Assembly (NCBI GenBank): GCA_044892525.1
Contig: CM097888.1
Span: 33,542,001 to 33,606,000 of the forward strand
Direction: 5' to 3'
From: Schmidtea polychroa
Lineage: Eukaryota
DNA: 64,000 nt
This document shows positions 18,560 to 64,000 of the stretch, one piece after another. How positions within the stretch are numbered: the first letter of the stretch is position 1; each line of letters begins with the position of its first letter. Position numbers and translations under genes: made by a program. The notes beneath the pieces are model-generated. The model ran no database searches and was not told where the DNA came from. It was given only the letters and a program-made list of their open reading frames with translations.

Positions 18560-19271
18560 CTTTTATGCACAAGAGCCGGAGTGGCCCTTGAGATCTCCAA
18601 GTGTGTCGCGAGATTTTTGAAAAATATTAAAATTCCTAGGGTTTTGAAAGAAACAACAAAAGGTCAAGATATTTTTGATCTTATTGATAAGAATCTTCCA
18701 ATTTTTAATTATCACTGGAAAAATTGTGTGAGCATTTGTATTGATGGAGGTCGTCAATGATTAGAACGAATAAAGGATTTGTTTCTTTGGAACAACAGAA
18801 GAACTCGAAAATTTCAGGCGTTTACTGCATGATTCACCGAGAAGCTCTTGTTTCAAAATCATTGCCCGATAATCCCAAATCAGTAATAGATCAAGTAATT
18901 CAGATGGTGAATTTCATCAAAACTCGTCCTCTTCTAACGCCAATTTTTGCTCAACTCTGCGATGCGATAGAATATGACTTCAAATGTCCATTATTCGATA
19001 CTGACGTTCATTTGTTATCAAAAGGAAAGGTTTAAAAGTTGCTGGTTCATCAAAAGATTGAAGTTATATCACTTTTTGAAACCGAAGTAACCTTGAACCT
19101 CGATTTAATTCAATTTGTGCAAAGCAATAGGCCCAAATTTCTTACTAAATAAACAACTTTCTTTAAAAAATATGTTTTGCTCGTGGTCTTAGTTATGGAA
19201 CTTTTGGTGTGTCGCTAAAATTTTAAAGTTTGGCTAGTGTGGCACTACGCAAAAAGGGTTGGGAAACACTG
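18560..19271 (+). mobile_element. hAT (Buster/ZBED5-like) transposase remnant with right TIR
   Basis: Frameshifted motifs TTKGQDIFDLID, CVSICIDG, YCMIHREALVSK, MVNFIKTRPL; ends ggttgggaaacactg at 19271. Confidence 0.85.
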
Positions 19272-20188: not shown

Positions 20189-21413
20189 AGTAGGTAGATA
20201 GTAGCCCACGGGAAAAATTACCCCCCCGGGGGGGGGGGGGGGTTTGTTCCCAAATTTTTATTACGCAATTGTTCCCAACTCATTTTTATGCTTTCAGGGA
20301 TTTTTGGTCCAAATTTTTTTATCACACTATAGTGAGGGGGTCTCGATGGTCCTGGGATTTTCAATACAAAAAATTTTTTTCAATACAAAAAGCTGGTCTA
20401 CACTAAAAAAAGCCAAGGATTTTTCAGACTATAGTGCGGGGGTCTCGATGGTCCTGGGATTTTCAATACAAAAAAAAATTTTTCAATACAAAAACGATGG
20501 TCCTGGGATTTTCAATACAAAAAAATTTTTTCTATACAAAATTCCGACTACCACTAAAAAAGCCAAGGATTTTTCAGACTATAGTGAGGTGAGTCTCCTA
20601 GAACCTGAGAAATATGTGGTCTACACTAAAAAAACGTGGTAATTTAAGGTCTCAGGATATTTTCAATACAAAAAGCTGGTCTACACTAAAAAAGCCAAGG
20701 ATTTTTCACACTATAGTGAGGTGAGTCTCCTTGGTCCTGAGAAATAGGTGGTCTACACTAAAAAAACGTGGTAATTTAAGGTCTCAGGATATTTTCAATA
20801 CAAAAAGGTGGTCTTCAATAAAAAAGCATGGATTTTTCTAGGTCAATTCAGGTGAGTCTCCTTGGTCCTGAGAAATAGGTGGTCTACACTAAAAAAACGT
20901 GGTAATTTAAGGTCTCAGGATATTTTCAATACAAAAAGCTGGTCTACACTAAAAAAGCATGGTAATTTAAGGTCTCAGGATATTTTCAATACAAAAATCT
21001 GGTCTACACTAAAAAAGCCAAGGATTTTTCAGACTATAGTGAGGGGGGTCTCCTTGGTCCTGAGAAATAGGTGGTCTACACTAAAAAAACGTGGTAATTT
21101 AAGGTCTCAGGATATTTTCAATACAAAAAGGTGGTCTTCAATAAAAAAGCATGGATTTTTCTAGGTCAATTCAGGTGAGTCTCCTTGGTCCTGAGAAATA
21201 GGTGGTCTACACTAAAAAAACGTGGTAATTTAAGGTCTCAGGATATTTTCAATACAAAAAGCTGGTCTACACTAAAAAAGCATGGTAATTTAAGGTCTCA
21301 GGATATTTTCAATACAAAAATCTGGTCTACACTAAAAAAGCCAAGGATTTTTCAGACTATAGTGAGGGGGGTCTCCTTGGTCCTGAGAAATAGGTGGTCT
21401 ACACTAAAAACGT
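20189..21413 (+). repeat. Left inverted arm built of about 30/60-bp tandem subrepeats
   Basis: Units such as ggtctacactaaaaaa(a)cgtggtaatttaaggtctcaggatattttcaatacaaaaag; 323-bp higher-order repeat (20862 to 21185). Confidence 0.92.
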
Positions 21414-28150: not shown

Positions 28151-29518
28151 CCACGTTTTTAGTGTAGACCACCTATTTCTCAGGACCAAGGAGACCCCCC
28201 TCACTATAGTCTGAAAAATCCTTGGCTTTTTTAGTGTAGACCAGATTTTTGTATTGAAAATATCCTGAGACCTTAAATTACCATGCTTTTTTAGTGTAGA
28301 CCAGCTTTTTGTATTGAAAATATCCTGAGACCTTAAATTACCACGTTTTTTTAGTGTAGACCACCTATTTCTCAGGACCAAGGAGACTCACCTGAATTGA
28401 CCTAGAAAAATCCATGCTTTTTTATTGAAGACCACCTTTTTGTATTGAAAATATCCTGAGACCTTAAATTACCACGTTTTTTTAGTGTAGACCACCTATT
28501 TCTCAGGACCAAGGAGACTCACCTGAATTGACCTAGAAAAATCCATGCTTTTTTATTGAAGACCACCTTTTTGTATTGAAAATATCCTGAGACCTTAAAT
28601 TACCACGTTTTTTTAGTATAGACCAGATTTTTGTATTGAAAATATCCTGAGACCTTAAATTACCATGCTTTTTTAGTGTAGACCAGCTTTTTGTATTGAA
28701 AATATCCTGAGACCTTAAATTACCACGTTTTTTTAGTGTAGACCACCTATTTCTCAGGACCAAGGAGACTCACCTGAATTGACCTAGAAAAATCCATGCT
28801 TTTTTATTGAAGACCACCTTTTTGTATTGAAAATATCCTGAGACCTTAAATTACCACGTTTTTTTAGTGTAGACCACCTATTTCTCAGGACCAAGGAGAC
28901 TCGCCTCACTATAGTCTGAAAAATCCTTGGCTTTTTTAGTGTAGACCAGCTTTTTGTATTGAAAATATCCTGAGACCTTAAATTACCACGTTTTTTTAGT
29001 GTAGACCACCTATTTCTCAGGACCAAGGAGACTCACCTCACTATAGTCTGAAAAATCCTTGGCTTTTTTAGTGGTAGTCGGATTTTTGTATAGAAAAAAT
29101 TTTATTTGTATTGAAAATCCCAGGACCATCGTTTTTGTATTGAAAAAAATTTTTTTGTATTGAAAATCCCAGGACCATCGTTTTTGTATTGAAAATCCCA
29201 GGACCATCGTTTTTGTATTGAAAAAAATTTTTTTGTATTGAAAATCCCAGGACCATCGTTTTTGTATTGAAAAAATTTTTTTTGTATTGAAAATCCCAGG
29301 ACCATCGTTTTTGTATAGAAAAAATTTTTTTATATTGAAAATCCCAGGACCATAGAGACCCCCTCACTATAGTCTGATAAAAAAAAATTTGTACCTAAAA
29401 TCCCTGAAAGCAAAAAATGTGAGTTGGAACAATTGCATAATAAAAAGTTGGAACAATTTTACCCCCCCCCCGGGGGGGGGGGGGGGTAATTGTTCCAGTG
29501 CGCTACTATCTACCTACT
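28151..29518 (-). repeat. Right inverted arm built of the same subrepeats
   Basis: Reverse complement of the left arm; the innermost about 230 bp give an identical translation (ORF track 21185-21415 vs 28148-28381). Confidence 0.92.
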
Positions 29519-44089: not shown

Positions 44090-44600
44090 TTTCAGATGTG
44101 CGCCCTGTACTAATGCACCGCTCGCACCACCTTTGTTACGGCCCTGTCAATATCAAATTGGTGGCTTAATATATTAGTAGTTGATGTTATTTTTTTATTT
44201 CATTTGTTTTTATTTTAGAAAATTTAAAAGGGTCTGATAATTTTTGGCGTGCGCGCTAGATTGTGAAAACTGCGCGGGACTTTCAAAACTGCTGCACAGC
44301 TTAGAAGGAACTTTGCAGCCACCATCAAATCATCTTTCTAAATCATTGGCAAATAATAATGTTGAATCCAACGGAAATTCAAAACATTCAAGTCAAGTTT
44401 CTTTCTCTTCTGGTTTTCTCTCAAAATCAGTTAAAATTATAGAACAGAGTAAAAACAAAATTTTGTCAAATATGCTAATAAATTTAAACAGAAAAAAAAT
44501 CGAAGCAAGGACAAAAATTTTCAAAACGGCGTATAGCTTGGTATAAAGAAACAGACCAATGTCCGATATAGATGCAATTTTATTACTGTATAAAATTAGT
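44090..44600. mobile_element. Cluster of hAT fragments (two termini and an N-terminal transposase piece)
   Basis: ttacggccctg terminus at about 44146; ttagaaggaactttg at about 44315 (same family as 53782); TKIFKTAYSLV*RNRPMSD resembles ZNF862-type hAT transposases. Confidence 0.55.
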
Positions 44601-44949
44601 TGTTCTTGTATGATTAACTTATGACGCTCTAATAAAAATTAATTTCTTTCTTTTCAGGTGGTGCAAGTGTTATATCGGTTCTAGTTGCAAGGTTCTAAGT
44701 CGGGCGGGGTAACACAAGTTTTCCAGGATATAATTAACTGGCATTGTTTAAATCATAGACTACAAATTGTGCTAGATAATGAAAGTTAATTAATCATTTT
44801 AAATCATTTTTAGATAAGATTTATTCGGTTGTAGGTAAAACGCGGGATTGCAGGATGCGGGAGTCGCGAGTAAGCAACGGGTAAAAAGCAGGAAGACTTT
44901 TGCGGGATTATTCAGTGGGAATGTGGGTAAAAAGCGGGAACAATGTTTG

Positions 44950-46640
44950 AAAATATTTGAAAAAATTTTATTTGCACGGCACATTCAAATGAATCTGGAT
45001 TTTCGAATTTAACTTCCGTCGATTTCTTTAATTTTCTTGATTTGTTCGGTTTGTTTGAAATTTTTGTAGGTGGAACGTTGAATTTGCAACAATAATAGAT
45101 TGAATTGTCTATAACTTCGGATTCTAAGTGATGGTCAAACGGAGTTTGTTCTGTCTGCATTGGTGATTGTTCCGCTTGATTTCCAATGACTTCTTCAATT
45201 AGAGCATCTAATTCATGTGGTTCCGCCTCACCTGTGGGAATGATGTCGATATTGCTCATTCTTGGATGATTCCTTCCAGATATTTTATCGAGTCGTTTTC
45301 TTTTGTTTTCTCTTAGCTGTGTCAATTTCATCTGTCGACGCGGAATCACTTCTTTCATGCCTGTATAGATATGTTAACAGTTTGATTTAGTTTGGCAGGA
45401 ACAGGAAATTGTAGGAAAAAGCCACACCAAAGTGGTTCAATTGTTCCCTGGATTGTAAAAACAGCCATCTGAGGATTTAAGAAGATGTTATTTGATTTAA
45501 TAACATGTACCGCTCTTTCATTCGTCGATGCGTTTATTGATTCAGGACCATTCGTCACAGAGTTAATTGTTTCTGAAGTTGTTGAACTAGACGATTATTG
45601 GGGTTCTTCTATTGTGGTAATCTGTACGTTCTGATGATTTCCTTCGTCTATTGTTGTTGTTGGACATCCGGAAGAACGAATTATATCTACTATTTCTTCT
45701 GGAGTTATGACAGATTTTGTTTCTGGAATACATGGATTTTGTGTCAATCCTTCTCGTAATTCGTAATTTTCTAATCCGCTGTATCCTCGCTTAATTTCTC
45801 TCAGTTGATATTCTGTCAGTATACGTAGACTAAGGGACATCGAATCGGTTGGTGCTTCCTTCCAGTCTTGTAAACGTTTGAGAACAGTTTTGAAAGCCTC
45901 TTATTGGTTGGTTGTAGCACGACTGAGGTTGAAATGTAGAAGTTCCCACAATCCCAGATTATGTATGTTGACGTGGACAGAACTTGTGTAATACTCAGAA
46001 AAATGTTGGCTGCATTTTTACATCATGTCGATAAGTTGATCCTTGTATGCGTTTAGAGATGGGGGTTCAAGAAGTGATTCAAACGAGGTAGAATGAAATT
46101 TCATCGCTCTTCGTCACACCATAACTTAGCCACCGCTTAGCATCCTGTTGAATATGATTCCACCATAAAAAGGTTTTCATATTAGGAAATATTTGGATAT
46201 GGCATCAATGATATCTTTTTCCTGATCAATCATCATAACTCCGTTGTTTGCCGTGTTTATGTCCGGACATATCTTCTGTATATGTCTAAAAAATGAATCG
46301 TGCGTTTCTTGTAACTTTTTTTCATGGATCAAGTAGGGAAGTGGAATGATTGGCTTTGAATCAAATTCAATTTCTCTGAATAAGTAAAAGTTTCCAAGTT
46401 TGAAAGTTGTATCATAGGACATCTTTTGTGAGAAGATTTGAGTTGGAGGATAGCGTCTTCTTGAAGATTTTGATGACATCAGGATGATACAATATGAAGG
46501 ACAGATTGGGAAACGTAGTGATGCTTTGAATAAAGTTCGAATCCTGTGCAACCTCATGAGGATTAAAAAGATCATCTCTTAACAATCGTCCACGATTTCT
46601 TTGTATTTTCATACAATTTATTTAATGAAGAAAGATCGAG
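44950..46640 (-). mobile_element. Mutator-like (MULE) transposase pseudogene
   Basis: SYDTTFKLGNFY...PLPYLIHEKKLQETH...DQEKDIIDAI...WNHI (DDE domain), frameshifted SWIM finger CSCQTKSNC*HI, LTQLRENKRKRLDKISGR. Confidence 0.82.
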
Positions 46641-47550
46641 GATGGCAGATCGTGACATTTTAATAAGTGACTATGTGGTAAAAGGCGAGAACGGGTATAT
46701 ATTAGTAAAGATATGCATGTTAGAGGGAGGTTTGAAAACTCATCATGCAGGAACCGGCTTGGGATATGTAGAAAAATGGAAAGATTTTATTAATGAATCA
46801 AATGGCACAGTGAATAAACTCACGAAGGATGAAAAAATAAATGACATGAAGGCAATAGAAGCTATATTAGACAAAATTAAAGAATGATTGTGTTCAGATA
46901 TTAATGAGCATGATAAGCTTGAATTGATGAATATATGATAGATATATGACAGATATAATAGATATAATAGATATATGACAGATATGTCATAGATATATTA
47001 TAGATAGTAATATATATATAANNNNNNNNNNNNNNNNNNNNNNNNNNNNNNNNNNNNNNNNNNNNNNNNNNNNNNNNNNNNNNNNNNNNNNNNNNNNNNN
47101 NNNNNNNNNNNNNNNNNNNNNNNNNNNNNNNNNNNNNNNNNNNNNNNNNNNNNNNNNNNNNNNNNNNNNNNNNNNNNNNNNNNNNNNNNNNNNNNNNNNN
47201 NNNNNNNNNNNNNNNNNNNNNNNNNNNNNNNNNNNNNNNNNNNNNNNNNNNNNNNNNNNNNNNNNNNNNNNNNNNNNNNNNNNNNNNNNNNNNNNNNNNN
47301 NNNNNNNNNNNNNNNNNNNATGATAGATGCATGATATATGATAAAACAATCTAGCATAACAAATATGAACATGATAAAATGAAAGAAATTCCATTCGAAA
47401 CAATTTATTAATAATAAAAGCTTAAACAAGTGTATATATCCATGTCTATTTACAATTAATTATTATTTTGATAAAACTGAAAATGGCAATTTACAATAGA
47501 TAGTAAATTGTAATTTATAATATTAGAAAATTCGTTCACAGAAATATCCT

Positions 47551-50500
47551 TCACTGGCTATCGTCACTGGATGAGCTGGAATCACTACTAGATGATGACG
47601 AAGCTGAACTATTGGATGAGGATGACGAGTCGACAGATGAATTTCTACGCCGTTTCTTTTGATCGGAATTTACAGGATTGTTTGCTGTCTTATTTTCAGA
47701 TACTTTTTGAATTTTCCGATCAATTGACACGCGATTCTCTTCGCTTAATTTCCGCTTCAAATCTTTTTTCTCATTAATATTCTTTTCAGATGATATTTTA
47801 GCATTATGTAATTTTTCTCTAGAATCTTTAGAGGCTTTTTTGTCTGATTCGTTTTCCTGTTTATTGATTGGTTCCGATCGTTCATTGACTCTATATTTAG
47901 AGTCATTTACACGTCGAATTTTATCATTGGTACTATCTCGAGTGTCACTATCACGATAAGATTTCGGTTTCTTTTCATCTCTTTCTTTCGGTTCTCTGTG
48001 TACGTCAGAATCGATTTTAGAAGATCGCGATTCATACTCTCGTCTCGTTGGCTTATCAATATCTTTTTCTTTTTCTCTTGAACTATCTGGATGTTTCTTA
48101 GTCAGTTTATCCTTTTTATCTCTTTCAGATTCATTTTCAATTTCTTTTTCCGATTCTTTTGGACGTCTTTGTATTTCTTTATCTGTTTCTTTCGGAATTT
48201 TTTTCGATTCACAATCGACTTGCTTTACATTTTTCTGTGATTCTTTCACCGTTGCATTTGGCTCTTTTCTTTCTTTGTTCAAGTCTTTTGATTCTTTTCT
48301 GGTATTGATATCATTACTCTTAACATCTTTCTTTGTTTCATTTTTAATTTCTTTAACGTGTTCTTTGAGTTTATTTTTAATGTTATATTCACTTTCCTTA
48401 ATGTCTTTCTTTGTGTCTTTTTCTAAATCGCTAGTTCTTTTTCTTCGTGTGTCTTTTTCTATAAATTTAGGATCCTTTCTTAAATCTTTTTCTATTTCTC
48501 TTTGTTCTCTTCTTCCGTCTTTTTCATCATATTTTTGATCTTTTCTTGTATCTCGAGGAATATCTCGTGTATCTCGAGGAATATCTCGTGTATCTCGAGG
48601 AATATCTCGTGTATCTCGAGGAATATCTCGAGTATCTCGAGGAATATCTCGAGGAATATCTCGAGTATCTCGAGGAATATCTCGAGTATCTCGAGGAATA
48701 TCTCGAGTATCTCGAGGAATATCTCGAGTATCTCGAGGAATATCTCGAGTATCTCGAGGAATATCTCGTGTATCTCGAGGAATATCTCGTGTATCTCGAG
48801 GAACGACTCGTGTATCTCGAGTTATATCTCTAGAATCTCGGGGAATATCTCTTGTATTTCGAATCAAATCTCTTGAATCTTTTTTATCTTTATTTTCTCT
48901 CAATTCCGGCTTTCCTTCTTTAATTTCAATGGCACTTTTCGATCTTTTGTCAATATCTCTAGATTCTTTTCTAGGTTCTCGGTATTCTTTTCGTGATTCT
49001 CTGTTAGTAAATTTTGATTCTTTAGCAGTGTCGCGTTGCCTTCTTGATTCTTTTTCTGAATCATTCAAGAACTCTCTATTATGATCTCTATCTTTGTATG
49101 CATCTTTCCTGCGAGAATCTCTGTGCATTTCATTATTTCTTGCTGAATTATTATAACGATCATTCTCACCGAATCTTCTATGTGCTTCCTCATCTCTTCT
49201 GTTATTATTTTTATCACCACCCATTTTTTCTCTTGATCTATCCCTTATATTTGAACCGTAATCTTTATTCGTGGTTTCATTATGCTTCTCGGATTTTTTA
49301 TTCGAGTGCTTGGACTTTTCAATTTCTTTTTCTTCTTTTTCAACCTTCTCTTTAGAATTCCGTTTCGATGAGATAGATTCACTAATTTGTCCAGATTCTT
49401 TGCTATCTGCATCAGAATCATGCTTCCTCTTCGATTTTTTACTTTTTTTCTTTTGTTTCTTTGATTTTTTCTTATGCTTTCTCTTTTTTTCTTTTTTATT
49501 TTCATCCTCAGAATCTGAAGTATCAATAGACAATGCTTCAATTTCTTTCTTCTTTTTTTTAGATTTCTTAGATTTCTTTTTCTTCGGTTTATCATCATGA
49601 GAATCTTCATTTTTTACATCAGTAATTTTTCTTTTGTATTTTGCCTTGGATGATTTTTCAAAAAAATTATCAGTATCCCTGAAATGAATTCCGAATATAA
49701 ATATAACAAGACATTAAAAAAATATGTTCGATTAATAAACACCAATCTAATCGATTATTTGCACCACTCTGTGACATAAACTAATAGAATTGTGCAACTC
49801 CTAGTACGTAACAAATGATTTCTGTTCATTCAAATATTACAGCTCCGTTATGTCAATCCGTTGATTTTTTTATTGCAGTAAACATTTTTAAAACATAAAA
49901 TGAATATTCAAAACTATTCGTGCCTATTGAATTTTGTGATTAAAAAATATATTTTAAATTATTTTTTTTATTAGGATGGTTAATAAATAATGAATATAAC
50001 TAAATAGGGGATATAAATTTTATGTAAGATTTTATAGTTTCAATTGTAGTATTAGACCAGTGGTGGCCAACCCAAATCAATCGAAGGGCCAAATTTCCGG
50101 AAAAATACTATCACGGGCCACAATAAATTCATTTAAATAAATGTAACTCGTTTTTACGATTCAAGTAAACTTAGAATCAATTTTTTAAATTAAAAACATG
50201 CTTAATTCGAATATGAATTCTAAAAAAAAATTATTGATTTGATGTTTAAAATTGTGTCCGGGCCACATCAAAACGCTTCGCGGGCCACCGGTGGGCCATG
50301 GCTGTATTAGAAGATATTTGATTTTAAAATGATATTAAAATACAACATGAAAGAGACAAATGCATAGATGCAGAAGAATGATGTAATATTACAATTTTTT
50401 CTATTTACATTATAAGAAAATAGGTTTTCTTGTATTGTTTCGTTGAATGATAAATAAAAAAAAGTTAAGGTATTAAATTTCTATCAAAAAGTTTAGAAAA

Positions 50501-52456
50501 AATGCATTGGCTGCGCTGGTGCTGCAATATGTGATCCAGTTTTATAACGATATTTGCTACTGTATCGGGGGGTCATTTGCAATTAAAATAATTTAAATGG
50601 CTTGGTTTATTTAATATTCATCAATAAATTATAATTTATAGCTGTAGAATTAATGATAACCAAATACGTAATGTAACATCAACGCGTAATTTATGGAACA
50701 TTTAATTTCACTCTATCAATGCCGATTTTCGTAAGTATGGATATAATTTTGAAATTCATGTTTTAATAATAATATATTTACTTTTCAATGACTAAATATT
50801 GTGTTTTATTTCTATTTAAATATTATTTTTGGATAAACTATTTACACAAAACTTTTTAATTGAATATTCGGTTTCCCTCACAGATTTGTGTATAGAAGAA
50901 ATATAAATATTCACAAAATTTTAATGTCAATTTTGCACTGATGGAGTTTTATTATTAAAAGGTATCTATAATAAAATTAGTATACTAAATGAATTCACAG
51001 TCCCTTTGAAGCTGTTCTATTTTTTTAATAATAGCAGGAAAAACACTCGTTTATTTAGCATTATTAGAGAATCATCAGCATTGAAAAGTGTATTAAATGT
51101 TGAGACTTTTTGGGTGTTCAATATAGATGTTTTCCTTCTTATATGTCCGTGTTATTTAATTTTAATCTTTCAGTTATAAATGTACTTTTATAATGTAATT
51201 AAGCATAGATATTGATTTTCCCCAAAAAACATAAGGTGCTGTGATATTAGATTTATCAAATTTGTATTTTTCAATAATGTTAGCAGAAACAAAATGAATA
51301 GCAATAAAGGAAAACCATTAAACGTAAAAAATATCTACCAAATAGAGCAGCATCAAGTGTTAAAGAACCTTTGCCAATCCCGAGTTGTTAGAACAGACAA
51401 AATTAATTATTTCTAGAAAATATCGATTTTATTAAAAGTTAAGCGAAAAATGAACAAAACATCAGCGTATTTTATCTACAGATAAAGACCGGGATAGAAT
51501 CAGAATGTTTAATGCGAAATCATAAAGGTGCGTTTAATGAACTCCGAAATGAAAAGTCAGATTATTTAAATCAAATGGTATAATACTTAACTATGTGATA
51601 ATTCTTCAGTGTTGTTATTGATTTTAAAGCATTTCAAAACTCTAATTAATTAATAACATTAATTGTTAAATGAATTTAATAATTTTAAATTGCCTTCATC
51701 TTCAGTTCTTTTCAGACTGTAAATCAATATATTTGAGAAGCATGAAATGAATCTGTCAAGGTAAGTAAAACTGTCCTAATACGGCAATGGGAGTACATCA
51801 ATAAAAAAAATCTAATATAAAATAGTATAACAGCAAAGAGTCTATAATAAAATCACATAAAATTATTTAACAAGATTCAGAATTTTAAATCAATGATAAA
51901 TAAAATTCAAAAATAATAAAATATCGTAAAATTAAGAAAAATATTAATTCAACTTACTTCTCGTCATCACTTTTAATATTGAGAGCATTTTTAAATTTTT
52001 GGTCCTTTAAATTATTTGCAATAGCTATTTCATGGGTTCCTTTTCCGACAATCCTACCACCCATATCCTTCTCGAAATCATCAATCGTAACATCTGTATC
52101 TATTTTCATTTGTTCATTATGCTTATCGATAAGACTTTGACGGTAAACATTAACTTTTGCTTCGATGTCTTCAGCAGAGTATCTGAATGGAAATATAATT
52201 TTGAAATAATTAATAACTTTTTCATATACCCTTGTTTTTCCATTAAATCTTCTAATTCGACGCACTTTAATTCTATTTTTCTTTTCCTCTCATGCTCCAG
52301 AATATCTTTGTTAGGCTTTTTAAAGATAGACTGACCTTTAGTATCGGGTGGCTTATATTCTTCTTGCTTTCTAACAGGTGCATGAGCTAGATTTCTTTGA
52401 ATATAACCATTCGTACCACTTCCTCTCGGAGTAGTTAATCCAATTCCATTATACAT
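47551..52456 (-). CDS. CWC21: CWC21/SRRM2-family pre-mRNA splicing factor with long charged low-complexity tail, about 859 aa, 3 exons
   Basis: MYNGIGLTTPRGSGTNGYIQRNL and HERKRKIELKC...YSAEDIEAKV...YR cwf21 domain; exons 52456-52230, 52182-51958, 49678-47551 with matching phases and GT-AG sites. Confidence 0.9.
48548..48860 (-). repeat. Coding 21-nt tandem repeat, (RDTRDIP)n
   Basis: 11 perfect peptide units, one 12-nt partial unit and 3 degenerate units inside the CWC21 terminal exon. Confidence 0.95.
50058..50304. mobile_element. hAT-type MITE (247 bp) in CWC21 intron 2
   Basis: TIR cagtggtggcc / ggccatggctg; flanks TATTAGAC and TATTAGAA (7/8). Confidence 0.8.
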
Positions 52457-52924
52457 GTTTATCTAAATCTAATAAATTGGATTAAATATAAATTGATAAT
52501 AATTTTATTTTAAAGTTATTTCTATTCAATAAGCAAGATAAAACTAAATATGAAATATAACTATATATTATGCTATTTAAGAGTAGATTTTAAAATATCA
52601 GATTATTAAATCTGTTATTGCTATTTAGAAAAATTAATTGTAATTTTAAATGTCAATATAACACTCACAATTATTAAAATGGAACAAATAATTTTAAAAT
52701 GTAATTTATTTAAACAATTTGCATTCGGTGATTAAATTGATTGAATTGTCGAGAATGTATAATTTCGAAGTTTAAATTTATTAACTTTAAATTTTAAATA
52801 TCATGTCAATTTTTAAGCAAAAATATGTTAGGAAAATATGATTTTCAAAAAAATTTTAGCTAAAATATTAATTAAAACTTACGATGAATAAAAATCATTC
52901 TTAGAAAATATTAATTTTAAAAAA

Positions 52925-53075
52925 TTTTATGGTTGGGTAGGGTTGATAATCAGTTAACTTTCAATTTCAAAAAATATTAATTTTAAAAATTTTATGGTTG
53001 GGTGGGGGTTGAAAATTAGTTAACTTTTGAATTTTGGAAATTAAATAATTTTTAAAATTTTATGGTTGGGTGGGT
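52925..53075. repeat. About 65-bp tandem repeat with G-rich core ttatggttgggt(a/g)ggg, 3 copies
   Basis: Directly visible; lies between the CWC21 start and the Polinton. Confidence 0.8.
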
Positions 53076-53270
53076 CAATATTTATAACACACAACTTGAA
53101 ATCTAAAATTTATTTAATTTAAAAAATTGAAGATGTAGTGATGTATAAAATGGTTGCGGTAAGCCGGTGTTCCCATTATATACACTACTATCTTTAATAT
53201 TGAAATATTGAAAAATATAAATTTATAAAAAGTGAAAAATTAAGGTTGTGAAAAAATATTTTTTAAAAAA

Positions 53271-53781
53271 ATGGCTACTTCGAAAAATTTGAATACCCAA
53301 AGATATTTTTGTGATTTATGTATAAGAAACTTTTAATCAAAAACAGCATTAACTTCTCATAAAAAATCAAAAGATCATTTAATTAATGCAAATCTTTTAA
53401 ATGATACCAACTCTAAAATTTTAACAAATGTAAAGTGAGATATTTATTTTCAGGATTTAATAAACACTATACAAACTGTATTGGAATTAAAAAAATTAGA
53501 AAAACATTTTCTTGTTTAATATGCCATAAAAAATTCAAAACTAAATTTGAATTAAAAAGACATTCAAGAGAATTTTGTCAGGAAAATGAAACAGGTGAAC
53601 AAGATGAAGAAAGTTGGGATGATTTTAATCAGGTTGATATATTTGGTACTGATGAATTTACAACATGTTCAATTTCATCATATATTAAAAAATATTCAAA
53701 AAAGATAAAAAATTCAATGGAACAATCTATAAAAAGTTTCAAAAACTCAAGGTATAATATTATAAAATATATAGTTACAGT
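53271..53781 (+). pseudogene. Zinc-finger ORF remnant, possibly the N-terminus of pPolB
   Basis: FCDLCIRNF*SKTALTSHKKSKDH and CLICHKKFKTKFELKRH fingers, stop and frameshift; truncated by hAT insertion; no polymerase motifs remain. Confidence 0.55.
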
Positions 53782-54600
53782 CAACGTTCCCTCTAATTTT
53801 TTTTAGCTGAGCAGAAAAAAAAATATTGCGCCACGATTAAAAAATTAAATAAAAATTAAGCAATTAGGAATTTTTTTTATTTGAAAAATCATATTTTATG
53901 TTTATATAAGTACATGATAATTATTTTTCTCGCCTATCTTTATTGTGCTTCCAGTAATGGTATACTTTATCCAGATCAATAATATTTTCTGAAACCAAGT
54001 GTGATTTTATTCTTATTAAGTTACTCAAATGATTAACGTCCAATCTATTTCTAAATTTTGTTTTAATCAAATTCATCATGCTAAAACCTCTTTCACAATC
54101 AGCACTCGACGCTTGAAAGGTTCCACAAATATCAAAGAAATATTTTATATATTAAAAACAGTCTCCACGAAGAACCAATTGAAGTAGATCATTGAAATTA
54201 AGACCGTTATTTTTGAATTTTTCCGTAAATAAATATTTTAAATCTTTATACTCATCCATTATTATTTTATTATCCATATTTGGGATGAGATCTCCATATT
54301 TCAATATTATTTTTTTTAAATTTTCATTCCCATAATTAAAATCTGATGTATTGACAATGCCGTTTTGATCAAAAGCATTCCAAAGATCCATGTCACTATC
54401 AGGAAATCTTTTATGCAAATGGTAGCATAACTTCTCAATAAATAGAATTATCTCAGACAATTTTTGCATATCATTATTACCTTCATCTTCGAGAATTTTT
54501 TTCACATCCTCACTTCAATAAACTATATCACCAAGGTACTGACTTCTTAATTTTGTGATGATCGATTTACAATATTTATGCGAGAAATTTACCTTCTTTA
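53782..54600 (-). mobile_element. hAT (ZNF862-like) transposase 3' remnant inserted in the Polinton
   Basis: TFQASSADCERGFSMMNLIKTKFRNRL dimerisation motif; terminus caacgttccctctaa at 53782; other end missing. Confidence 0.82.
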
Positions 54601-54619
54601 ATAATACAACCCTTTTCAT

Positions 54620-55230
54620 TTTGATTTAAATATTGATTTAAACCCCGTATATATTTTGATTTTGAACTACCTCCTACTAATTTTATTAAATGTAAATATT
54701 TTTTTAATTTCAGTTTTATCATCTGAAGAATATCCTTTAATTAATTTATCCAAATCTTTTGTGTATTCTAGATCTAAACGTTATTTCTTGAAACTCTTTT
54801 CCCCTGGAAAGTTATTTTCAGAATGAATATATGGTTCACCATTATTATTTTGATACAAAATAAATCATTGATTATTAATTGTTATAATTTGATATCCATT
54901 ATCAATAGAAAAAGTTGGTTTAATTGTTGCAGGTAATTTTCCACTATTAATTGTTGTATCAACTTTGTATGGTTTTGAATTTATTTCTAAATCTTCAGGT
55001 TCCACATCCCAAAATTATAAATCTTTAGGTGATTCTAATTCTTTTGGTATTAAATATCTATATTCTATTTCTTTAGTTTTTAATTCTTTCAAAGCATCAA
55101 GAGTTGGTTGTTGTTGTTCTGTCATTAATTCATTTAAATTTATAGATTCACTATGTTGAGTCAAATCTTTTTTATTATACTTGTATTGTTCAACATGTAA
55201 TTTTTTAACAGACCTAATCTTTCTTCATTA
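54620..55230 (-). pseudogene. Degenerate Polinton hypothetical ORF
   Basis: Long frame with three internal stops (VKKLHVEQY...LEYTKDLDKLIKGYSSDD...KYLHLIKLVGGSSKSKY); collinear with the upstream Polinton ORF. Confidence 0.45.
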
Positions 55231-55289
55231 ACCATTTTATATATTATAAAAATAGTATATATATATACCACTTTATGGTATGTATTATT

Positions 55290-55829
55290 TTATGATTCAT
55301 CTTCTTTAGAAAAAGGTTTAAAATATAAACCTTTGCCATCTTTTGATTTACAAATACAACCGTTTTTCAAAGACTTGTATATTTTTTTTAAACAATCTTT
55401 TTCTTTTGTGGATAAAACAGATGATGAAATTTGATTTTTGAGAAAATCATTTAAACTTCTACCTTTGAAGGGATCAAGATATAAACCCTGTCCTATGAGT
55501 GTTGTATCAACACTTGTAGGACCTGTTCCTTTCTTTTTTTGAATTGAATCAAATTCCTGTTGTAATTTTTGTTTTTCTAATTCAGTTTTTTGAGCTTCTT
55601 TAGCCTTCTGAACTTTGGTTGCAATCACTCCAGCTATTCCAGCCGCACCAGATAAACCTGCAATGATTGCTTGTATTAAAGCAGCCAAGGGTAAAATCCC
55701 ACCTTCTTTTATTTTCTCACGCACTTGCTCCTTGACATTTTTTGTAACAAAATATTTCTTACCATCAATTACTACTGATTTACTTTTGTCTGAATTTATT
55801 AATTCTTTTAGAGATTCTTCAGTCGTCAT
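55290..55829 (-). CDS. Polinton small protein (179 aa) with Gly/Ala-rich hydrophobic helix; putative core/membrane-active virion protein
   Basis: Intact ORF; EGGILPLAALIQAIIAGLSGAAGIAG resembles the GG-(F/I)LP motif seen in Polinton small ORFs and adenovirus pX. Confidence 0.65.
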   Translation of the reverse strand: MTTEESLKELINSDKSKSVVIDGKKYFVTKNVKEQVREKIKEGGILPLAALIQAIIAGLSGAAGIAGVIATKVQKAKEAQKTELEKQKLQQEFDSIQKKKGTGPTSVDTTLIGQGLYLDPFKGRSLNDFLKNQISSSVLSTKEKDCLKKIYKSLKNGCICKSKDGKGLYFKPFSKEDES

Positions 55830-55843
55830 TTTTTAATAAAATT

Positions 55844-56640
55844 TTGAATCAAAATAATATTTGGAATCCAATTTTAACGCGACACAAAAGTAAATTTAAT
55901 AATAAAATGTTTCCTGATAATTTTAGATTATTAATTGTTGGATTTTCAGGTTGTGGAAAGAATGTACTTCTTTTGAGAATGTTACTCGAGGATGGTTTTT
56001 TAAATTATAATAATTTAATATTTTATTCTACAACTATAAACCAGCCAAAACTACAACTTTTAAAATGTGGATTTGAAAATAAATTAACTAAAAAAGGAGT
56101 CATTGATATTTTTAAAAATCAACACAGATGTCCCGATGAAGTTTTTCAACCGTGTGATATGGTTGATTGGTACAAGGAAAATATTTTAGAATCAAACATT
56201 CCTAATAAAAATGATTATGTTAATAATAATGAATCAATACAAGTTTTATTCTCCAACAAACCTGAAGATGTAGTACATTGTGATTTTCTTTCCAAAGATA
56301 AAAAGAATCTAGTTATATTTGATGATGTTGTAAATATGAAAAATCAAGAAATTCAAAAAAGTTATTTTACTCGAGGTCGTCATAATAATTGTAATGTGAT
56401 TTATATTTCTCAAACTTATTATGCTTTGGATAAAAATTCAATTAGAAACAACTCCAATTGTTTCATCTTTTTTAAATTAGATAAGCGTGACAAGAATATG
56501 ATTTATGGTGATTTATTTTCAAATGTTGAACCCGACAAGAACATGTTTGATATGTTTGTTGATAATCATTGGAAAAAAAATACAATTATATTTATTTGGA
56601 TAAAGAAAAAGATGAGATGCAGAAAAGCTTGTTTAATTAA
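55844..56640 (+). pseudogene. A32-like DNA packaging ATPase (FtsK/HerA superfamily), 3' frameshift
   Basis: Walker A GFSGCGKN, Walker B LVIFDD, FTRGRH, YISQTY, IRNNSN; frameshift in the A-run at 56573-56580, restored frame ends ...KSLFN* at 56640. Confidence 0.9.
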
Positions 56641-56669
56641 AAAGTTGATTTTAAAATTTTGGAAAAATG

Positions 56670-57808
56670 TTAAAAACTTGATTTCTGTAATTCATTATTA
56701 TAAAATCTACCCAATATTTCTTCATTATTTAAATCGATGATACTATATGTAATTGGAATTGTATGATGTATTTTATTTATAATAAAAATTTCATTTGTCC
56801 ATTTCGCTGTGAATCCTTTTTCAAATTTATTTTTATATTTAAATATTCTTACTCGTTCACCAATTTTAAACTTTGGTTTTATAAGTGTTGTATCAACGCT
56901 CATAAAACCTTTTTCTAGACCAGTGTTTCCCAACGTGGGGCCCACGCCCCACTTGGGGGCAATTTCGATTTCCAGGGGGGCAATTTGTATTTCCAGGGGG
57001 CAATTTCAATACGTATATCGATAAAAATAGTTGGAAATTTTTTAAAAACTGTAAAATGTTTTGCATAGGGGGGACAAAAGAAAAAAAATTCAGCTAGGGG
57101 GGACATGAGCTAAAAAAAGGTTGGGAAACACTGTTCTAGACCATTTTCAATATTTATTTCTTTAACTCTTTCAGGGTTTGTAGAAGCATTTAAAGGTGTT
57201 TCTTTTATAGAACTATGTACATCATTATTATATTCATTTACTATCTTTTGTAACAATTCATTGTTCCATTTTTGTTTTCCAATAGCAGTAAAATATTTCC
57301 ACATTTTATTTTTTAATGTCCTATTTAATCTTTCAACTACGACTACTTTTCCTTCGTTTTCTTTTGAATATGATTTAATATCAATTTCTTGCAAAAATTT
57401 TGTAAAAACTTTGTTATAAAATTCTGTTCCTTTATCACACCATAAATATTTTGGAATTTTTTGATGTTTTTCAAATATATTTTCAAATGCTTCTGTAATA
57501 GAATATCCTGTTTTATTTTCTAAACCTCTTGCAAAAGCAAATCTTGTATATAAATCTATTACAGTTAAAATTATTTTATATTTTTCAGGGTCTGATGATT
57601 TGGTTGGCATAAAGACTAAATCAGCAGACCAAGTATGATCTTTTTCATAAACTTGAACTTTTAGATATTTTTTATTTTTTCTAAATTCATTGTGTAATTC
57701 GTTAGCATATTTTATTTGTGATTCTGTTGGGATTAGTAAATCAGTCTTGGATGCATTCTCAGCGTCTGTTTGTTCAATAATCTTTTTATTAGCAACATCT
57801 TTTGCCAC
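56670..57808 (-). pseudogene. Retroviral-type (rve) Polinton integrase with C-terminal PKFKIGERVRI domain, interrupted by a MITE
   Basis: WSADLVFM, LTVIDLYTRFAF, LWCDKGTEFYN, VERLNRTLK; removing 56921-57133 plus one TSD rejoins ENGLE/KGFMS in frame (918 nt). Confidence 0.92.
56921..57133. mobile_element. hAT-type MITE (213 bp) inside the integrase
   Basis: TIR CAGTGTTTCCCAAC / GTTGGGAAACACTG; perfect TSD TTCTAGAC. Confidence 0.95.
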
Positions 57809-58418
57809 CTATGAAAATCTTACGCTTCATTGCTAATTTAACTAGAGCTCTTTGAATCTTTTCTTGGGTTGATGGATTTTGTATATTATTTAAATCATGA
57901 ATTAAATTAACATTAGCAACATGTCTATCTCTAAGATTTTTTGAATTGTAAGTAATGTCGTGTTTTATAGCAGCTTGGTCAATTCTATTTATTGGTTCCT
58001 CTCCTTGTTTGGGATTATTATTTTCATCAAGTCTAATATCTAATCGTGTTCCAGGTGCAGTATAGTTGTGTTTAAATAAATGCCTTTCTCCTGGATATTT
58101 TTCAGTAGTAAAGGGTTTCAATAATGTTGATGTTAATTTTGAAGATTGTAAATGACCCCCTTGTTTTGAATTATAAGGGACTTGTGATTCAAAAGATGGT
58201 TCAAAAGCAAATCTACTCTCAGGATCGAAATCTAACCTTGGAATATTATTTGAAGATGAATTTTTATTTTCAGAATTTGTTTCATCTTCAAATTTATTTG
58301 ATGAAATTTTATTATTTGATCGAATTATATGTTTTTTAGTTTTAAGATGACTCGCTTTATGATGTCTTGTAACATCACAACGACAAATTTCACATGTCCA
58401 ATAACGTTTAGTAGACAT
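57789..58418 (-). CDS. Zinc finger plus parvovirus-VP1-type phospholipase A2 domain protein
   Basis: CEICRCDVTRHHKASHLKTKKH finger; HNYTAPGTRL...EPINRIDQAAIKHDITY matches YxGPG loop and HDxxY catalytic motif. Confidence 0.88.
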   Translation of the reverse strand: MSTKRYWTCEICRCDVTRHHKASHLKTKKHIIRSNNKISSNKFEDETNSENKNSSSNNIPRLDFDPESRFAFEPSFESQVPYNSKQGGHLQSSKLTSTLLKPFTTEKYPGERHLFKHNYTAPGTRLDIRLDENNNPKQGEEPINRIDQAAIKHDITYNSKNLRDRHVANVNLIHDLNNIQNPSTQEKIQRALVKLAMKRKIFIGGKRCC

Positions 58419-58529
58419 TTTAAAAAAATTAATTCCTAAAATCTTTCTTTGTAAAACTTTCTTTTATTGGTAAAACTTGTTTTAGTAATAAAAGTTGTTT
58501 ATTTCTTCAAATTTGTTTGGAGAATAAAC

Positions 58530-59818
58530 TTAATCTCCCCTAACATTCTCAATTATTGAAATCTTTCCACCATATAACTTCATTTCTATTTTCTTCTCTT
58601 CAAGAATTAATGTATATATTTTTTCTTTAAAATTAGAATCCTTTGTTATATGAAGAGTAACATCAACATTATTTATAACTAATCTATCATCTTAATCTGA
58701 AACATTTATACAGAATATAGAATACAAATTTTTGAAATCTTCTAAACTTAATTGTGGTTTTATTTTGAAGTCTTGGCATGTTTGAATATAATTTATATAT
58801 GGGAATATATTTTCATTGTTTTTTATATTAAACTCCATTCTATTTACTGGATAATAACTATTATTCAATTGAATTTGAATTGATTTTAAATTATCATCTC
58901 CAATCTTTTGAATAAACAAGTTGTTATTTTTTTGAAATGATACATCTGTTTCTTTGAATCCAATTAAAATATATCTTGGTCGATATGCTAAATTTGCTAC
59001 CTTTATAGAATATGTTGAACCCTCTCTCATATCAAATACACTACAGATTCTATTTAAATAATTTACATTTATAGACTTGTTGGAATTTAATCTTTCAAGT
59101 AATTTAATTTCAGCATGTGGATTTAATGTCCATTCGGGTATATGTAATTCAATTGTTGTTAATTTTAATTTATCTTTTGTATCTGCAGCTCCATAGAATA
59201 ATACTTTATCATCTTCTATTCTTTTACAAAGTAATTCTATAAAAACATTATGAAGTACACGATTATAATTTTGAAGGAATCCAAATAAATGTTTCAATTC
59301 AAAATAACCCTCAAATTTTTTAGATTTATAAAGTTCAACTCGTTTAGGATAACCATAATTTATATCTAAACCATCTTTATCTAAATCACTTTATTTACAT
59401 CAGGGATCCAACCCATTGATTCACCATATTCGTTTTTATAATCACAACCAGTCAAAACAAAATTTAACATTGAAGAATATACACCTGGATACAAAATATT
59501 TTCAATTTCTGATGATCCTAATTTTATTCTCATGTTGGAGAATAAATTTGGAAAGAAATTATTTTCTTGAGTTATATCTTTATTTGCTTCAATCTCTAAT
59601 TCAATTTTGTAATATAATTTTGCATTACAAATATCTATAGGGTTTGATGTTTGAAGAGATTGAAAAGCTATATCACCTGAACGATTTAAATTTGAAATGG
59701 AACCAGAGATTGAACAGATTTTAAGTACATCATTTTTCTTGATTTCATGAATAAAGTGTTAATCATAATCAAGATTTAATTTATTTTTTTCTGAAATCTC
59801 GAGATTTATATTATTCAT
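58530..59818 (-). pseudogene. Polinton double jelly-roll major capsid protein (about 429 aa; two stops, one frameshift)
   Basis: MNNINLE...NNFFPNLFSNMRIKLGSSEIE...YPG...; LKHLFGF; RPRYILIGF; IQLNNSYYP; LYSIFCINVSD*DDRL... Confidence 0.8.
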
Positions 59819-59884
59819 TTTTTATAATATAAATTTATATTTTTCAATATTTCAATATTTCAATATTAAAGATAGTAGTGTATA

Positions 59885-60037
59885 AGTTAGATATCTGTTT
59901 GTTTAAATAATTTGGAATTGGCGGTTTTTGTGAATTAATTAAAACTTGTTATTTAGAAATTCTTTGATTAAATATATATTGTTAGTTTCAAGATTTTTGC
60001 TGCAAATTTAAAGATGGATCTAAAGATGGATTTAACT
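59885..60037 (+). repeat. Putative 153-bp 5' LTR (AGTTA...TAACT) followed by PBS TGGCGACCACG
   Basis: Begins exactly where the Polinton inverted-repeat match stops (after TATA); PBS-like TGGCG overlaps the last base; 3' LTR not in window. Confidence 0.7.
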
Positions 60038-60079
60038 GGCGACCACGCCGAAAATCAAAATATCAACGCCATTTCGAAA

Positions 60080-61323
60080 TCGACAAAATCGCTAATGGAA
60101 TGCCTACCAAAATCATGCTCACCAAGACATGCTCACACTGAATATCAGACGATATGATGGACGGTGTTTAAAAGAAGCCGAAGAATGGATCAGGGATATA
60201 GAAGAATGATTGCTGACAAATGGACAGCGATTGACAAGCACTTTCGATGTGTTATTAGTGGCAGAAGCAAAGACATTGTGGGGAAACGTTAGAGAAACAG
60301 AAACAACAGATGTAAAATCCAAAGCGTGGTTCTTAAATACGTTCACAATTACAAAATCAATAACTGACAAAATCAGAGAATTGGCAGCTATTGAACAGGA
60401 AGATGATGAAAGGTTTGCAGATACGGCTAAGGAAAGCTTTAGCTGAAGTTATAAATTCAGGACGATCAGAAAAAGATATTGTTCAAGATCTCATCGCAAA
60501 TAAAGCACGCGATGCGAGACGGAGAGAGATACTATTGACGAAACCAGAAACAAAAATTGAAGAAACGAGATCATTGGCGAAAATTTTTGAAAGTAACAAA
60601 AATGGAAACCATAAAACAGAATTTATTAAAGCAATCGGTCAAAGAACATACGCTAGCGTGACTGAGGGAGGGAAGATGAGAATTCAAAAGAATACCCAAG
60701 ATCCCATGCCTACATCATCATAAAGAAGACTATCAGAAGACCCATTTAGTCACCACAGATCAAGAAGAGACAAACATCCTATACGCGGACCAATACAATA
60801 CGAAGGAAATAACCATGGTCGTCGAGAACAATACCCAAGAGAACAATTCTTGAGAAATGTGAGAATCCCGAATAGCTCAGAAAGGAAACTGCCAACAATA
60901 TCCATGAAGAATATTGCAAGGAGGCTGTACAACGAAAGTAGGGGACTACCACAAGCATCGGTCCCAAAATTAACGGTAGGTGATTGTTTTTGCTGTGGCG
61001 AAAGGGGACATAGAAGGTATGAGTGTCCACTGGGAAATAAATGCCTGATATGTGGCAAGGAAGGACACGGGTTCCGAGATTGTTTTTCGTTACGGAAAGA
61101 TGTTCCACGCCGATATCAAAGAATAGAGTGCATAGAAGAAGAAGATTCAAAATCTGAAACAAGAGATTACACCAAGAACAGCCAGGATTTGAGAATGGAT
61201 CACAGCAATATGGAAGATAGATACAATGTCCCTGAGAAATATACTATATTGAGAGAAGACGGAAAAATATCAGCGACTCCATGGGTTTCATTTCGTCGCT
61301 GGAGTCAAGACAATAAATTGTGA
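60080..61323 (+). pseudogene. gag: Gypsy gag with two CCHC zinc knuckles, frameshifted
   Basis: IRRYDGRCLKEAEEWIRDIEE; CFCCGERGHRRYEC and CLICGKEGHGFRDC. Confidence 0.85.
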
Positions 61324-61329
61324 AATAAG

Positions 61330-64000
61330 AAATGAACGACGAAGAGACGAGGCTGAAGAAGAGATGTACCAGACGAAAGATGGAAGAAATTGGAGTAAAA
61401 TAATGTTGAATAATGCCGAAACAGAGATGTTATGGGATTCTGGAGCATCAGTAACAGTCATGAGCAAGAATTTGTGGGAGAAAATAGGCAAACCAGAATT
61501 TAAACGTAGTATGATATTATTGTGCGGAGTCTTTTCAACTGGAGGTGAAGAAGCAATGGGATACATGACTATACCGGCCACATGGAATCAGAAGACCAAA
61601 ATGATCACAGTAGTAGTGGTAAAAGAGATCAAACCCGAATTCATAGGGGGCATTGATACAATGAAAGAGTTTGGAGTAAAGTTAGTGAAAATCAATAATA
61701 TAGAAACGTCATTGATAAACAAATTTTACACTGATGAAGAAAGAATAAATAAAGCACTAGTGGCGATGGCAGGTGAGAATAATAAAGATATTGAAGGAAT
61801 GATCAGGGAATACGGCGGAATTTTTATGGCATCGAAATTCGATCTGGGATTTACAAACTTAGTTCGACATGAGATGCGGATAACAGGAGGCCCAATAATG
61901 CAACATCCTCGACGTCAACCAATGAACATGGAGAAAAGGATTGAAGAACTGATAAAAGAGTTAATGAAAGCAAATGTTACTCGGTGTTGCAAGAGTCCTT
62001 GGAATACCCCGTTAGTGATAGTAGGGAAGAAAGATGGATCTATCAGGATGTGTGTAGATTATCGTGGATTAAATTCCATAACAGAAAAAGAGTCATTTCC
62101 TATGCCTAACACCAAATTCTTACTAGACTGTCTCGCGAATGCAAAAATATTTTCGTCAATCGATTTAGGTCAGGCGTATTATCAAGTGGAGTTAGCTCCT
62201 GAAATTCAAGAGATGACTGCATTCAGTACAAGAGAAGGACAATTTTGCTTCAATAGACTACCGTTTGGCTTAGCAACAGCCCCTGCGACATTCCAGTGAC
62301 TGATGCACACAGTGCTAGAAGGAATGCTATTCAAGGGAGTAGTAGTTTATCTAGATGATATCTTGGTATATGGTAAAAGTCAAAAAGACCACGATGATCT
62401 ATTAAGGGAAATATTCAGAAGAATTCAAGTGGCAGGACCGAAGATAAATCCAGAAAAATGCAAATTCAATAAAACAGAATTGTGTTTCCTTGGTCACACA
62501 ATTAACGAGAAGGGTATCCAGACAAACAGGAAGAAAGTGGAAGAGATCGAGAAAGCAGAAGTAACAAAATGTTCAAAACAATTGAGATCGTTTCTCGGAT
62601 TAACGAACTACTATAGAAGATTCATCAAAGACTATGCCAAAATCGCCGAACCATTACACGCTGCAACATCTGGATGCGATAAAGATATAAAGTGGACTAA
62701 AGAATGCAATGAGAGCTTCCAAACTCTGAAGAGACGGTTGTGTGAAGCACCTATCCTTGAGTCAAATTACAGAAGATAGAGAAGAATCTGTCATAGCTTA
62801 TGGCTCGAGACATATGTCATCACATGAAAAGGGATACTGTGTAACCAGGAAAGAACTGCTCGCCGTACATGAATACGTCATGCATTTTAGAGAATATTTG
62901 TACGGAAAAAAATTCATAATTCGCACCGACCACAAAGCATTGGTTTTCATGAACACTACAAAAACGCCAATCAGTCCGCAGTTCCAAACTTGGTTAGCTA
63001 ACCTGTCGGAATATGATTTTGAACTAAAATATCGGAAAGACGAAGAAAACTCGAATGCAGATGGACTATCAGGATTAAAAAGTATGGTTTGCACCCAGTG
63101 TCAAACAAGACATGAAGAAGCTAAGCAAGGAAAATCAAAGATTAGATATATATATACTATCCAAAGAACAGAAGCTATGGAAAAAGTATGGGAACAACAA
63201 CAAAAGGACATTCGGTTTCAAGAGCTGCGAGAGATATTGGAAAATGGATGTACACGGGAGAAAAAGAATTGTTTTCCTTTTAACGTAAAAAATACACGAA
63301 TTGATGGAGGATTAATAACAGTAGAAAAGAACAAAAATATCTTAATGTTAGTCCCAGAAACATTTGCAGGCCTGTTAACAACAACACTACATGAAGAACT
63401 ATGTCACATTGGAGTTAAGAAATTATTTCATTATATGGAAAAGATATTTTATTGGCCGAAAATGCAAGAAACAATCCAACTCTGTTTACGATGTTGCGAG
63501 ATCTGCGCTAAGAGTAAGATCGATCAGACAAGAACCAAGGAAACATTTATTCCTAGATATAGCTCTGAATTCCTAGAACAGATTGTTATAGATGTGGCTT
63601 ACATGGAAATAAACGCCATGAAAAAATATATGGTAGTAATGGTGGAACGTTTTAGCAAACTGATTTCTTTAACTGCAATCACAAAGCAAGACGAAGGGAC
63701 CATTTTCAAAACAATATACTTAATAGTTGGATCTATCAATTTGGAAAACCAAAGAGCATTTTAACAGATAGAGGCCGAAATTTCGAAGGGAATTTCCTAA
63801 GACAGAAACTACAGAAACTTGGAATCAAACAAGAATTCAGCTCACCTTACCAGCACCAATCAAATGGTTTAGCCGAACGAGCCATACGAACGATAAGAGA
63901 TCTTATTACAGCAACATTGGCAGGCGGATGTGAAGAGAGAAACTGGCACGAACTTCTACCCAGAATAGAGTTCACTATAAATAGCAGTCGACAAAGTGCT
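61330..64000 (+). pseudogene. pol: Gypsy pol (protease, RT, RNase H, integrase) with stop, deletion and frameshifts
   Basis: LWDSGAS, RMCVDYRGLN, LPFGLATAPATFQ*, VYLDDILV, RKELLAV...IRTDHKAL, HEELCH...CEIC, HQSNGLAERAIRT. Confidence 0.95.

Follow-up and report, generated by a model that had tools for sequence, protein, structure and literature searches.

Intact vertebrate Mavericks measure 12.7–24.6 kb, are bounded by terminal repeats of 46–1,447 bp and are organised in two modules located on opposite strands and facing the centre; degradation affects 96% of the 3,511 loci surveyed in vertebrates (PMC8097293). Polinton elements below 10 kb were treated as incomplete in PMC4028283. Group 2 Mavericks commonly carry a phospholipase, and helicase fusions often occur in place of the protein-primed family B polymerase (pPolB) (10.64898/2026.06.19.733378), while adintoviruses are defined by OTU-PolB together with a chromodomain integrase (PMC8502044; PMC11071296). 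The stretch analysed here, hereafter the window, comprises 64,000 nucleotides of the Schmidtea polychroa contig CM097888.1 (positions 33,542,001 to 33,606,000 of the forward strand), and its positions 53131–59884 are a Polinton/Maverick-type insertion, real but decayed and internally deleted.

The insertion is a derivative of the Polinton kind, neither a complete member nor an adintovirus. It is not filed as a complete Polinton because, taken strictly, this copy lacks the polymerase and the protease and is too short, its own sequence amounting to 5,704 bases against the ~13–25 kb of Polintons. The features held in common with the Maverick/Polinton group (Polintoviricetes) are: (i) a double jelly-roll capsid; (ii) an A32 ATPase; (iii) an RVE integrase; (iv) inverted ends starting with AG; (v) inward-facing genes. 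In contrast, a replication gene, a protease and a recognisable penton are lacking here, and the copy is decayed and only 5.7 kb long in its own sequence. The four domains that an earlier, sequence-only reading of this DNA had listed as retained, namely capsid, packaging ATPase, integrase and phospholipase A2 (PLA2), all scored above Pfam's own cut-offs in a scan of 22 fragments; the A32/FtsK ATPase reached E 3.5e-8 with PF04665 and E 2e-96 with profile A2, and the parvovirus-type PLA2 domain E 1.5e-6 with PF08398.

Group 2 Mavericks (10.64898/2026.06.19.733378) are the closest described group, a placement made on shared PLA2 content only, with no reference sequences compared. The likeness to adintoviruses (PMC8502044; PMC11071296) extends to an animal-type integrating virus with a hexon-like capsid, FtsK/A32 ATPase, integrase and PLA2, and to a candidate pX-like protein, whereas this copy lacks OTU-PolB, adenain and the integrase chromodomain; moreover, PLA2 and pX are fused there as PLA2X and are separate genes here, with PLA2 apparently joined to the integrase. 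Polinton-3_NV and P_Od1.2 (PMC4028283 Table S1), compared by listed features only, also possess a capsid and an ATPase with no identifiable penton or protease, but their lengths are 16.6 kb and 24.7 kb against 5.7 kb here. Densoviruses and bidnaviruses share the parvovirus-type PLA2, the inverted ends and genes on both strands. However, the NS1 HUH/SF3 replicase and single jelly-roll capsid of these viruses are not found in this element, which has no SF3 helicase motif and encodes a double jelly-roll capsid, an ATPase and an integrase. The ambisense, densovirus-like logic proposed earlier is rejected, since the genes of vertebrate Mavericks are normally laid out in two such inward-facing blocks on opposite strands (PMC8097293).

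The 6,754 bases of the element are split into 5,704 viral bases, about 829 of hAT and 221 of MITE (miniature inverted-repeat transposable element) sequence, so that transposons foreign to the virus account for 1.05 of the 6.75 kb. Three transposons are involved: a gypsy element in the right repeat, the MITE in the integrase and a one-ended hAT in the zinc-finger gene. Five of the seven viral frames are broken; the core-like and finger-PLA2 frames are open. What had been called a compact endogenous Polinton-like virus is indeed an endogenous Polinton-like element, but not a compact, intact virus, given the broken frames, the foreign DNA and a zinc-finger frame cut by the hAT.

The deletion sits exactly at the hAT junction in the zinc-finger gene. 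The frame of this gene contains stops near 53334 and 53436 and a frame change near 53490, is truncated by the hAT, and has no continuation beyond the hAT remnant. Of its transposase the remnant retains the C-terminal stretch, about 230 codons long (PF05699, E 3.5e-4, slightly below the cut-off), and it directly adjoins the 3' end of a broken open reading frame (ORF) at 54576–55235; for its end at 53782 no partner was found in the element, and elsewhere there were only a few short, mismatched and weak matches (44296–46720). Since neither the remainder of the zinc-finger gene nor the 5' part of the hAT is present, the deletion occurred at the junction. The earlier suggestion that the missing genes were lost there is thus supported by a zinc-finger frame that stays open to the hAT end and by a hAT without its partner end.

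The insertion is, quite probably, an ordinary viral fossil: a Polinton that integrated, decayed and was shortened by a transposon-linked deletion. In this reading a Polinton/Maverick-type DNA virus integrated in the genome and then decayed. The copy has gathered stops and frame changes; the MITE has entered the integrase and the gypsy element the right repeat, and a hAT end sits in the zinc-finger gene. A single deletion from inside the hAT would have removed the remaining left inward-facing gene block. This block would have included the replication gene, either pPolB or the helicase/primase fusion seen in many group 2 Mavericks, and perhaps also the protease and penton. The genome of an intact Polinton parent would be copied as linear DNA starting at the terminal repeats; the parent would package it into the double jelly-roll capsid by means of the A32 ATPase, and use PLA2 for membrane passage and the RVE integrase for insertion; this copy is capable of none of these steps. 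The junction might instead have arisen in the assembly, by a join across repeated sequence that was left out, in which case the locus itself would be longer. Both sides of the junction are repeat-derived and six runs of N occur in the window, as such a join would have it, but none of these runs lies inside the element and one-ended deletions are an ordinary outcome of hAT activity, which makes a join quite unlikely.

Table. Features of the insertion and of its right flank (positions in the window)
Feature	Position	Strand	Description
Left terminal inverted repeat	53131..53240	.	begins AG; partner in window for 53179-53240 only; outer limit inferred
Zinc-finger gene, 5' part	53271..53781	+	two C2H2 fingers and acidic stretch; open into hAT end
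hAT remnant	53782..54610	-	one end and transposase C-terminal part; 5' end missing; inner boundary approximate
Broken ORF	54576..55235	-	~215 codons; three stops and frame changes; 3' end meets hAT remnant; absent from sequence-only reading
pX-like core protein candidate	55290..55829	-	open, 179 aa; hydrophobic Gly/Ala segment
A32-like packaging ATPase	55853..56637	+	no ATG where relatives start; frame change near 56578
RVE integrase	56670..57808	-	split by MITE; PF00665 E 7.3e-11
hAT-type MITE	56921..57133	.	213 bp; 14-bp perfect inverted ends; 8-bp target duplication 56913-56920 / 57134-57141
Finger-PLA2 frame	57789..58418	-	open, 209 aa; N-terminal C2H2 finger and PLA2 domain
Double jelly-roll capsid	58530..59818	-	PF21738 E 1.9e-16
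Right terminal inverted repeat, inner part	59810..59884	.	cut at 59884
Gypsy-type LTR (long terminal repeat) retrotransposon	59885..64000	+	LTR-like 59885-60037, then gag, protease, reverse transcriptase, RNase H, integrase; past window edge; not viral

Scans of the element for polymerase, protease, helicase and penton motifs, some of them taken from the alignment in PMC4028283, gave no match of note. The free space is insufficient as well: only 250 bases are without assignment, spread over five gaps of which the largest is 111 bases. The motif scans and gap sizes agree with the earlier statement that polymerase motifs, a protease and a recognisable penton are lacking in this copy. In particular, the protein-primed family B polymerase gave no motif or Pfam match, and the cysteine maturation protease was found in neither the motif nor the Pfam scan. 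For the single jelly-roll penton there was no motif match and no free space, although the motifs are a weak test and ORF 54576–55235 is without assignment.

Relatives were found for two of the genes, with 13 related proteins among 1,175 candidates in the capsid fragment search and 24 among 103 in the ATPase search. The closest clusters (the P0002/P0026 family, with 9 and 10 members) have intact frames, unlike this copy, and are 85–87% identical to its capsid and ATPase where full length. In trees of 16 and 22 rows, which cover subsets of the matches without fragments and without most cluster members, the closest capsid and ATPase clusters group with this copy at 100/100. Farther capsids occur on contigs of up to 9,190, 10,456 and 16,716 bases, and an ATPase cluster that includes Rotaria proteins, at about 38% identity, on contigs reaching 31,964 bases; such lengths would accommodate a full-size element without demonstrating one. 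The only named relatives are the rotifer ATPases P0205, P0206 and P0215 (Rotaria), also with intact frames, P0206 being about 39% identical; from these relatives alone the host would likely be an invertebrate animal. Regarding the genomic context of the relatives, a phage collection searched with the capsid and ATPase gave no match, and in prokaryote genome contigs none of the pattern matches (45 in one search, 222 in the other) was confirmed. The capsid has changed at 3 of 115 conserved versus 47 of 311 variable positions (p 1.4e-4), and the ATPase at 2 of 46 versus 27 of 191 (p 0.08). Neutral decay alone was rejected as the source of the 13–15% divergence, as the changes spare conserved capsid positions; therefore, much of the distance lies between living subfamilies, with decay added later.

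The model of the capsid relative P0002 (predicted local distance difference test, pLDDT, 80.5) matches the capsids of PBCV-1, mavirus and Sputnik at E < 1e-12. These matches are to giant-virus, virophage and PLV-type (Polinton-like virus) capsids, all at 7–14% identity and with no close named relative among them; an Adintovirus protein comes at rank 14 (TM 0.59, 10% identity). The capsid gave no match among PDB sequences, nor were its motifs matched in the readable parts of two published supplements. The lineage is an unnamed one, with no close named relative in the searches made. Degraded Mavericks are the rule, so the element as read here matters little in itself; it points, however, to this unnamed lineage, represented in public data by intact, near-identical capsid and ATPase genes with no close match among named viral structures.

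Several points weigh against a decayed and deleted Polinton as the explanation. All 19 closest relatives lie on contigs of 968–3,699 bases, too short for gene content, and no relative is shown with a polymerase, protease or penton. The capsid gene is flanked by the repeat and the PLA2 frame, and therefore the three absent genes were either all in the deleted block or never present; penton genes are usually located beside the capsid gene or one gene from it (PMC4028283). The zinc-finger gene, possibly the start of the replication gene, is not tied to a polymerase: a representative search yielded 140 matches, nearly all confined to the finger, with no whole-length relative; the Atlas gave no match; none of the 17 candidates of a word search was confirmed; and the structure model is poor (pLDDT 57). 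The last 45 residues of the zinc-finger fragment may resemble the start of the pPolB terminal-protein domain, a lead for which the model shows one long helix and no strand after it. The fold of that domain is described in PMC11071308.

In another explanation the family would be naturally replicase-less, a small capsid and integrase satellite from which the hAT deletion removed little. A full Polinton or a large DNA virus would then supply such a satellite with replication, and perhaps also with protease, penton and transcription. It would accord with a family to which no polymerase relative is linked, with the very tight gene packing (gaps of 23–111 bp) and with the PLV subgroup VC40, which at 15–20 kb is without detectable replication genes (10.64898/2026.06.19.733378). 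It would also accord with a start context shared by the genes. All five assigned starts (53271, 55235, 55829, 58418 and 59818) have T-A-A-A(n) before the ATG after 16–26 A/T-only bases, and the internal ATPase ATG at 55907 has this context too; it is found at 6 of 227 ATGs in the element versus 5 of 1,807 elsewhere. The 23-bp divergent gap implies that the promoters are very short or overlap coding DNA. The T-A-A-A(n) starts may resemble the compact late promoters of cytoplasmic DNA viruses. However, A/T-rich starts are expected in an element of 23–27% GC (most of the window being 20–35%), and an AT-rich start context explains the pattern as well. Moreover, the deletion is demonstrably located where a large gene would continue, and the element is a single, heavily decayed copy. 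On balance a replicase-less family is highly improbable. It is just as hard to credit an animal Polinton lineage that never had its own replicase, protease and penton, i.e. a helper-dependent integrating satellite of 6–8 kb with a finger/PLA2/integrase fusion and ultra-short A/T-rich promoters. Were the lineage indeed without a replicase by nature, animal Polintons would include a capsid-encoding satellite that depends on a helper, of which none was found in literature searches, and the lineage would allow a test of Polinton parts acting in trans.

The terminal repeats assigned earlier to 53131 and 59884 stand as an inverted pair well above chance. The pair 53179–53240 / 59810–59884 shows 80% identity over 75 nt (blastn, E 2e-13), with a local score of 94 against a maximum of 50 over 300 shuffles, so that ~60–75 nt are paired in the manner of Polinton ends. 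In contrast, 59884 is ruled out as the true right end: nothing in the window pairs with the outermost 48 nt on the left, and a gypsy element starts at 59885. Judged by the left end, the full repeat would be about 110 nt long. As the right repeat is interrupted by the gypsy element, the true right end, and with it any target-site duplication (5–8 bp in Mavericks), must be sought beyond the window. The earlier placement of genes right at the repeats holds, since the exact repeat arms end at 59828 and 53227 and the capsid ATG (59818) lies ~10 nt inside the first, the zinc-finger ATG (53271) ~43 nt, previously given as ~45, from the second. The left end and the inner right repeat are still present, which would fit a later spread of the deleted form as a non-autonomous 6–7 kb family mobilised by full-length helpers, and Repbase lists Polinton families labelled N of 11–15 kb (PMC4028283 Table S1). 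Nevertheless, no second copy of the element occurs within the 64 kb window, and such a spread is most unlikely. The LTR-like stretch of the gypsy element is 153 bp long, its ends being a 5-bp inverted pair; stops and frame changes interrupt the pol of the element, and no second LTR was found in the window.

The remaining genes of the element are arranged as follows. The capsid gene has stops at 59761 and 58694 and a frame change at ~59390–59420. In the integrase frame no Met precedes the first catalytic Asp motif, and its overlap with the finger-PLA2 frame is 20 nt; because of these two features, finger, PLA2 and integrase are probably one fused gene, broken near 57790–57810. No description of such a fusion was found in a literature search. 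The C-terminal piece of the integrase gave no Pfam match, and there is no room for a chromodomain, as only 32 bp separate the stop at 56670 from the end of the ATPase. At 19251–19271 the end of the MITE occurs once more, matching at 20 of 21 bases and without the MITE interior.

The relatives of the ATPase begin about 18 codons upstream of the ATG at 55907, i.e. at ~55853. The head-to-head gap of 14 bp between the ATPase and the core gene, reported earlier, does not hold: the ATGs at 55907 and 55829 are 77 bp apart, the gap by the homologue start is ~23 bp, and 14 bp results only from the TTG at 55844. For the 55290–55829 protein the two nearest Atlas clusters, at scores of 0.95 and 0.91, consist of Preplasmiviricota proteins, and 20% of the members of the second carry Adeno_PX. 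The Atlas recognition score is low, and therefore the putative core protein of the sequence-only reading is kept as a candidate, a lead to a pX-like core gene. ORF 54576–55235 matches no Pfam or NCBIfam family; it may resemble the adintovirus GasderminX/PZ class. Six weak PDB matches (E 0.07–0.6), to an unrelated insect protein, were rejected.

Outside the element, a 66-bp repeat of 2.5 copies (52905–53074) is located between the left end and a host cwf21-domain gene. This gene lies within 47551–52456 (-), and ~0.7 kb separate its start from the left end; a GT-AG intron of 47 nt, read by eye, is probable at ~52183–52229. A 720-aa charged low-complexity frame with 21-bp repeats, in the same interval and strand, perhaps also belongs to it. 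Farther away, at 20446–21410 and 28225–29353, mirror-image arrays of 49-, 60- and 131-bp repeats stand ~7 kb apart with other satellites between them, and look like the long inverted arms of another element.

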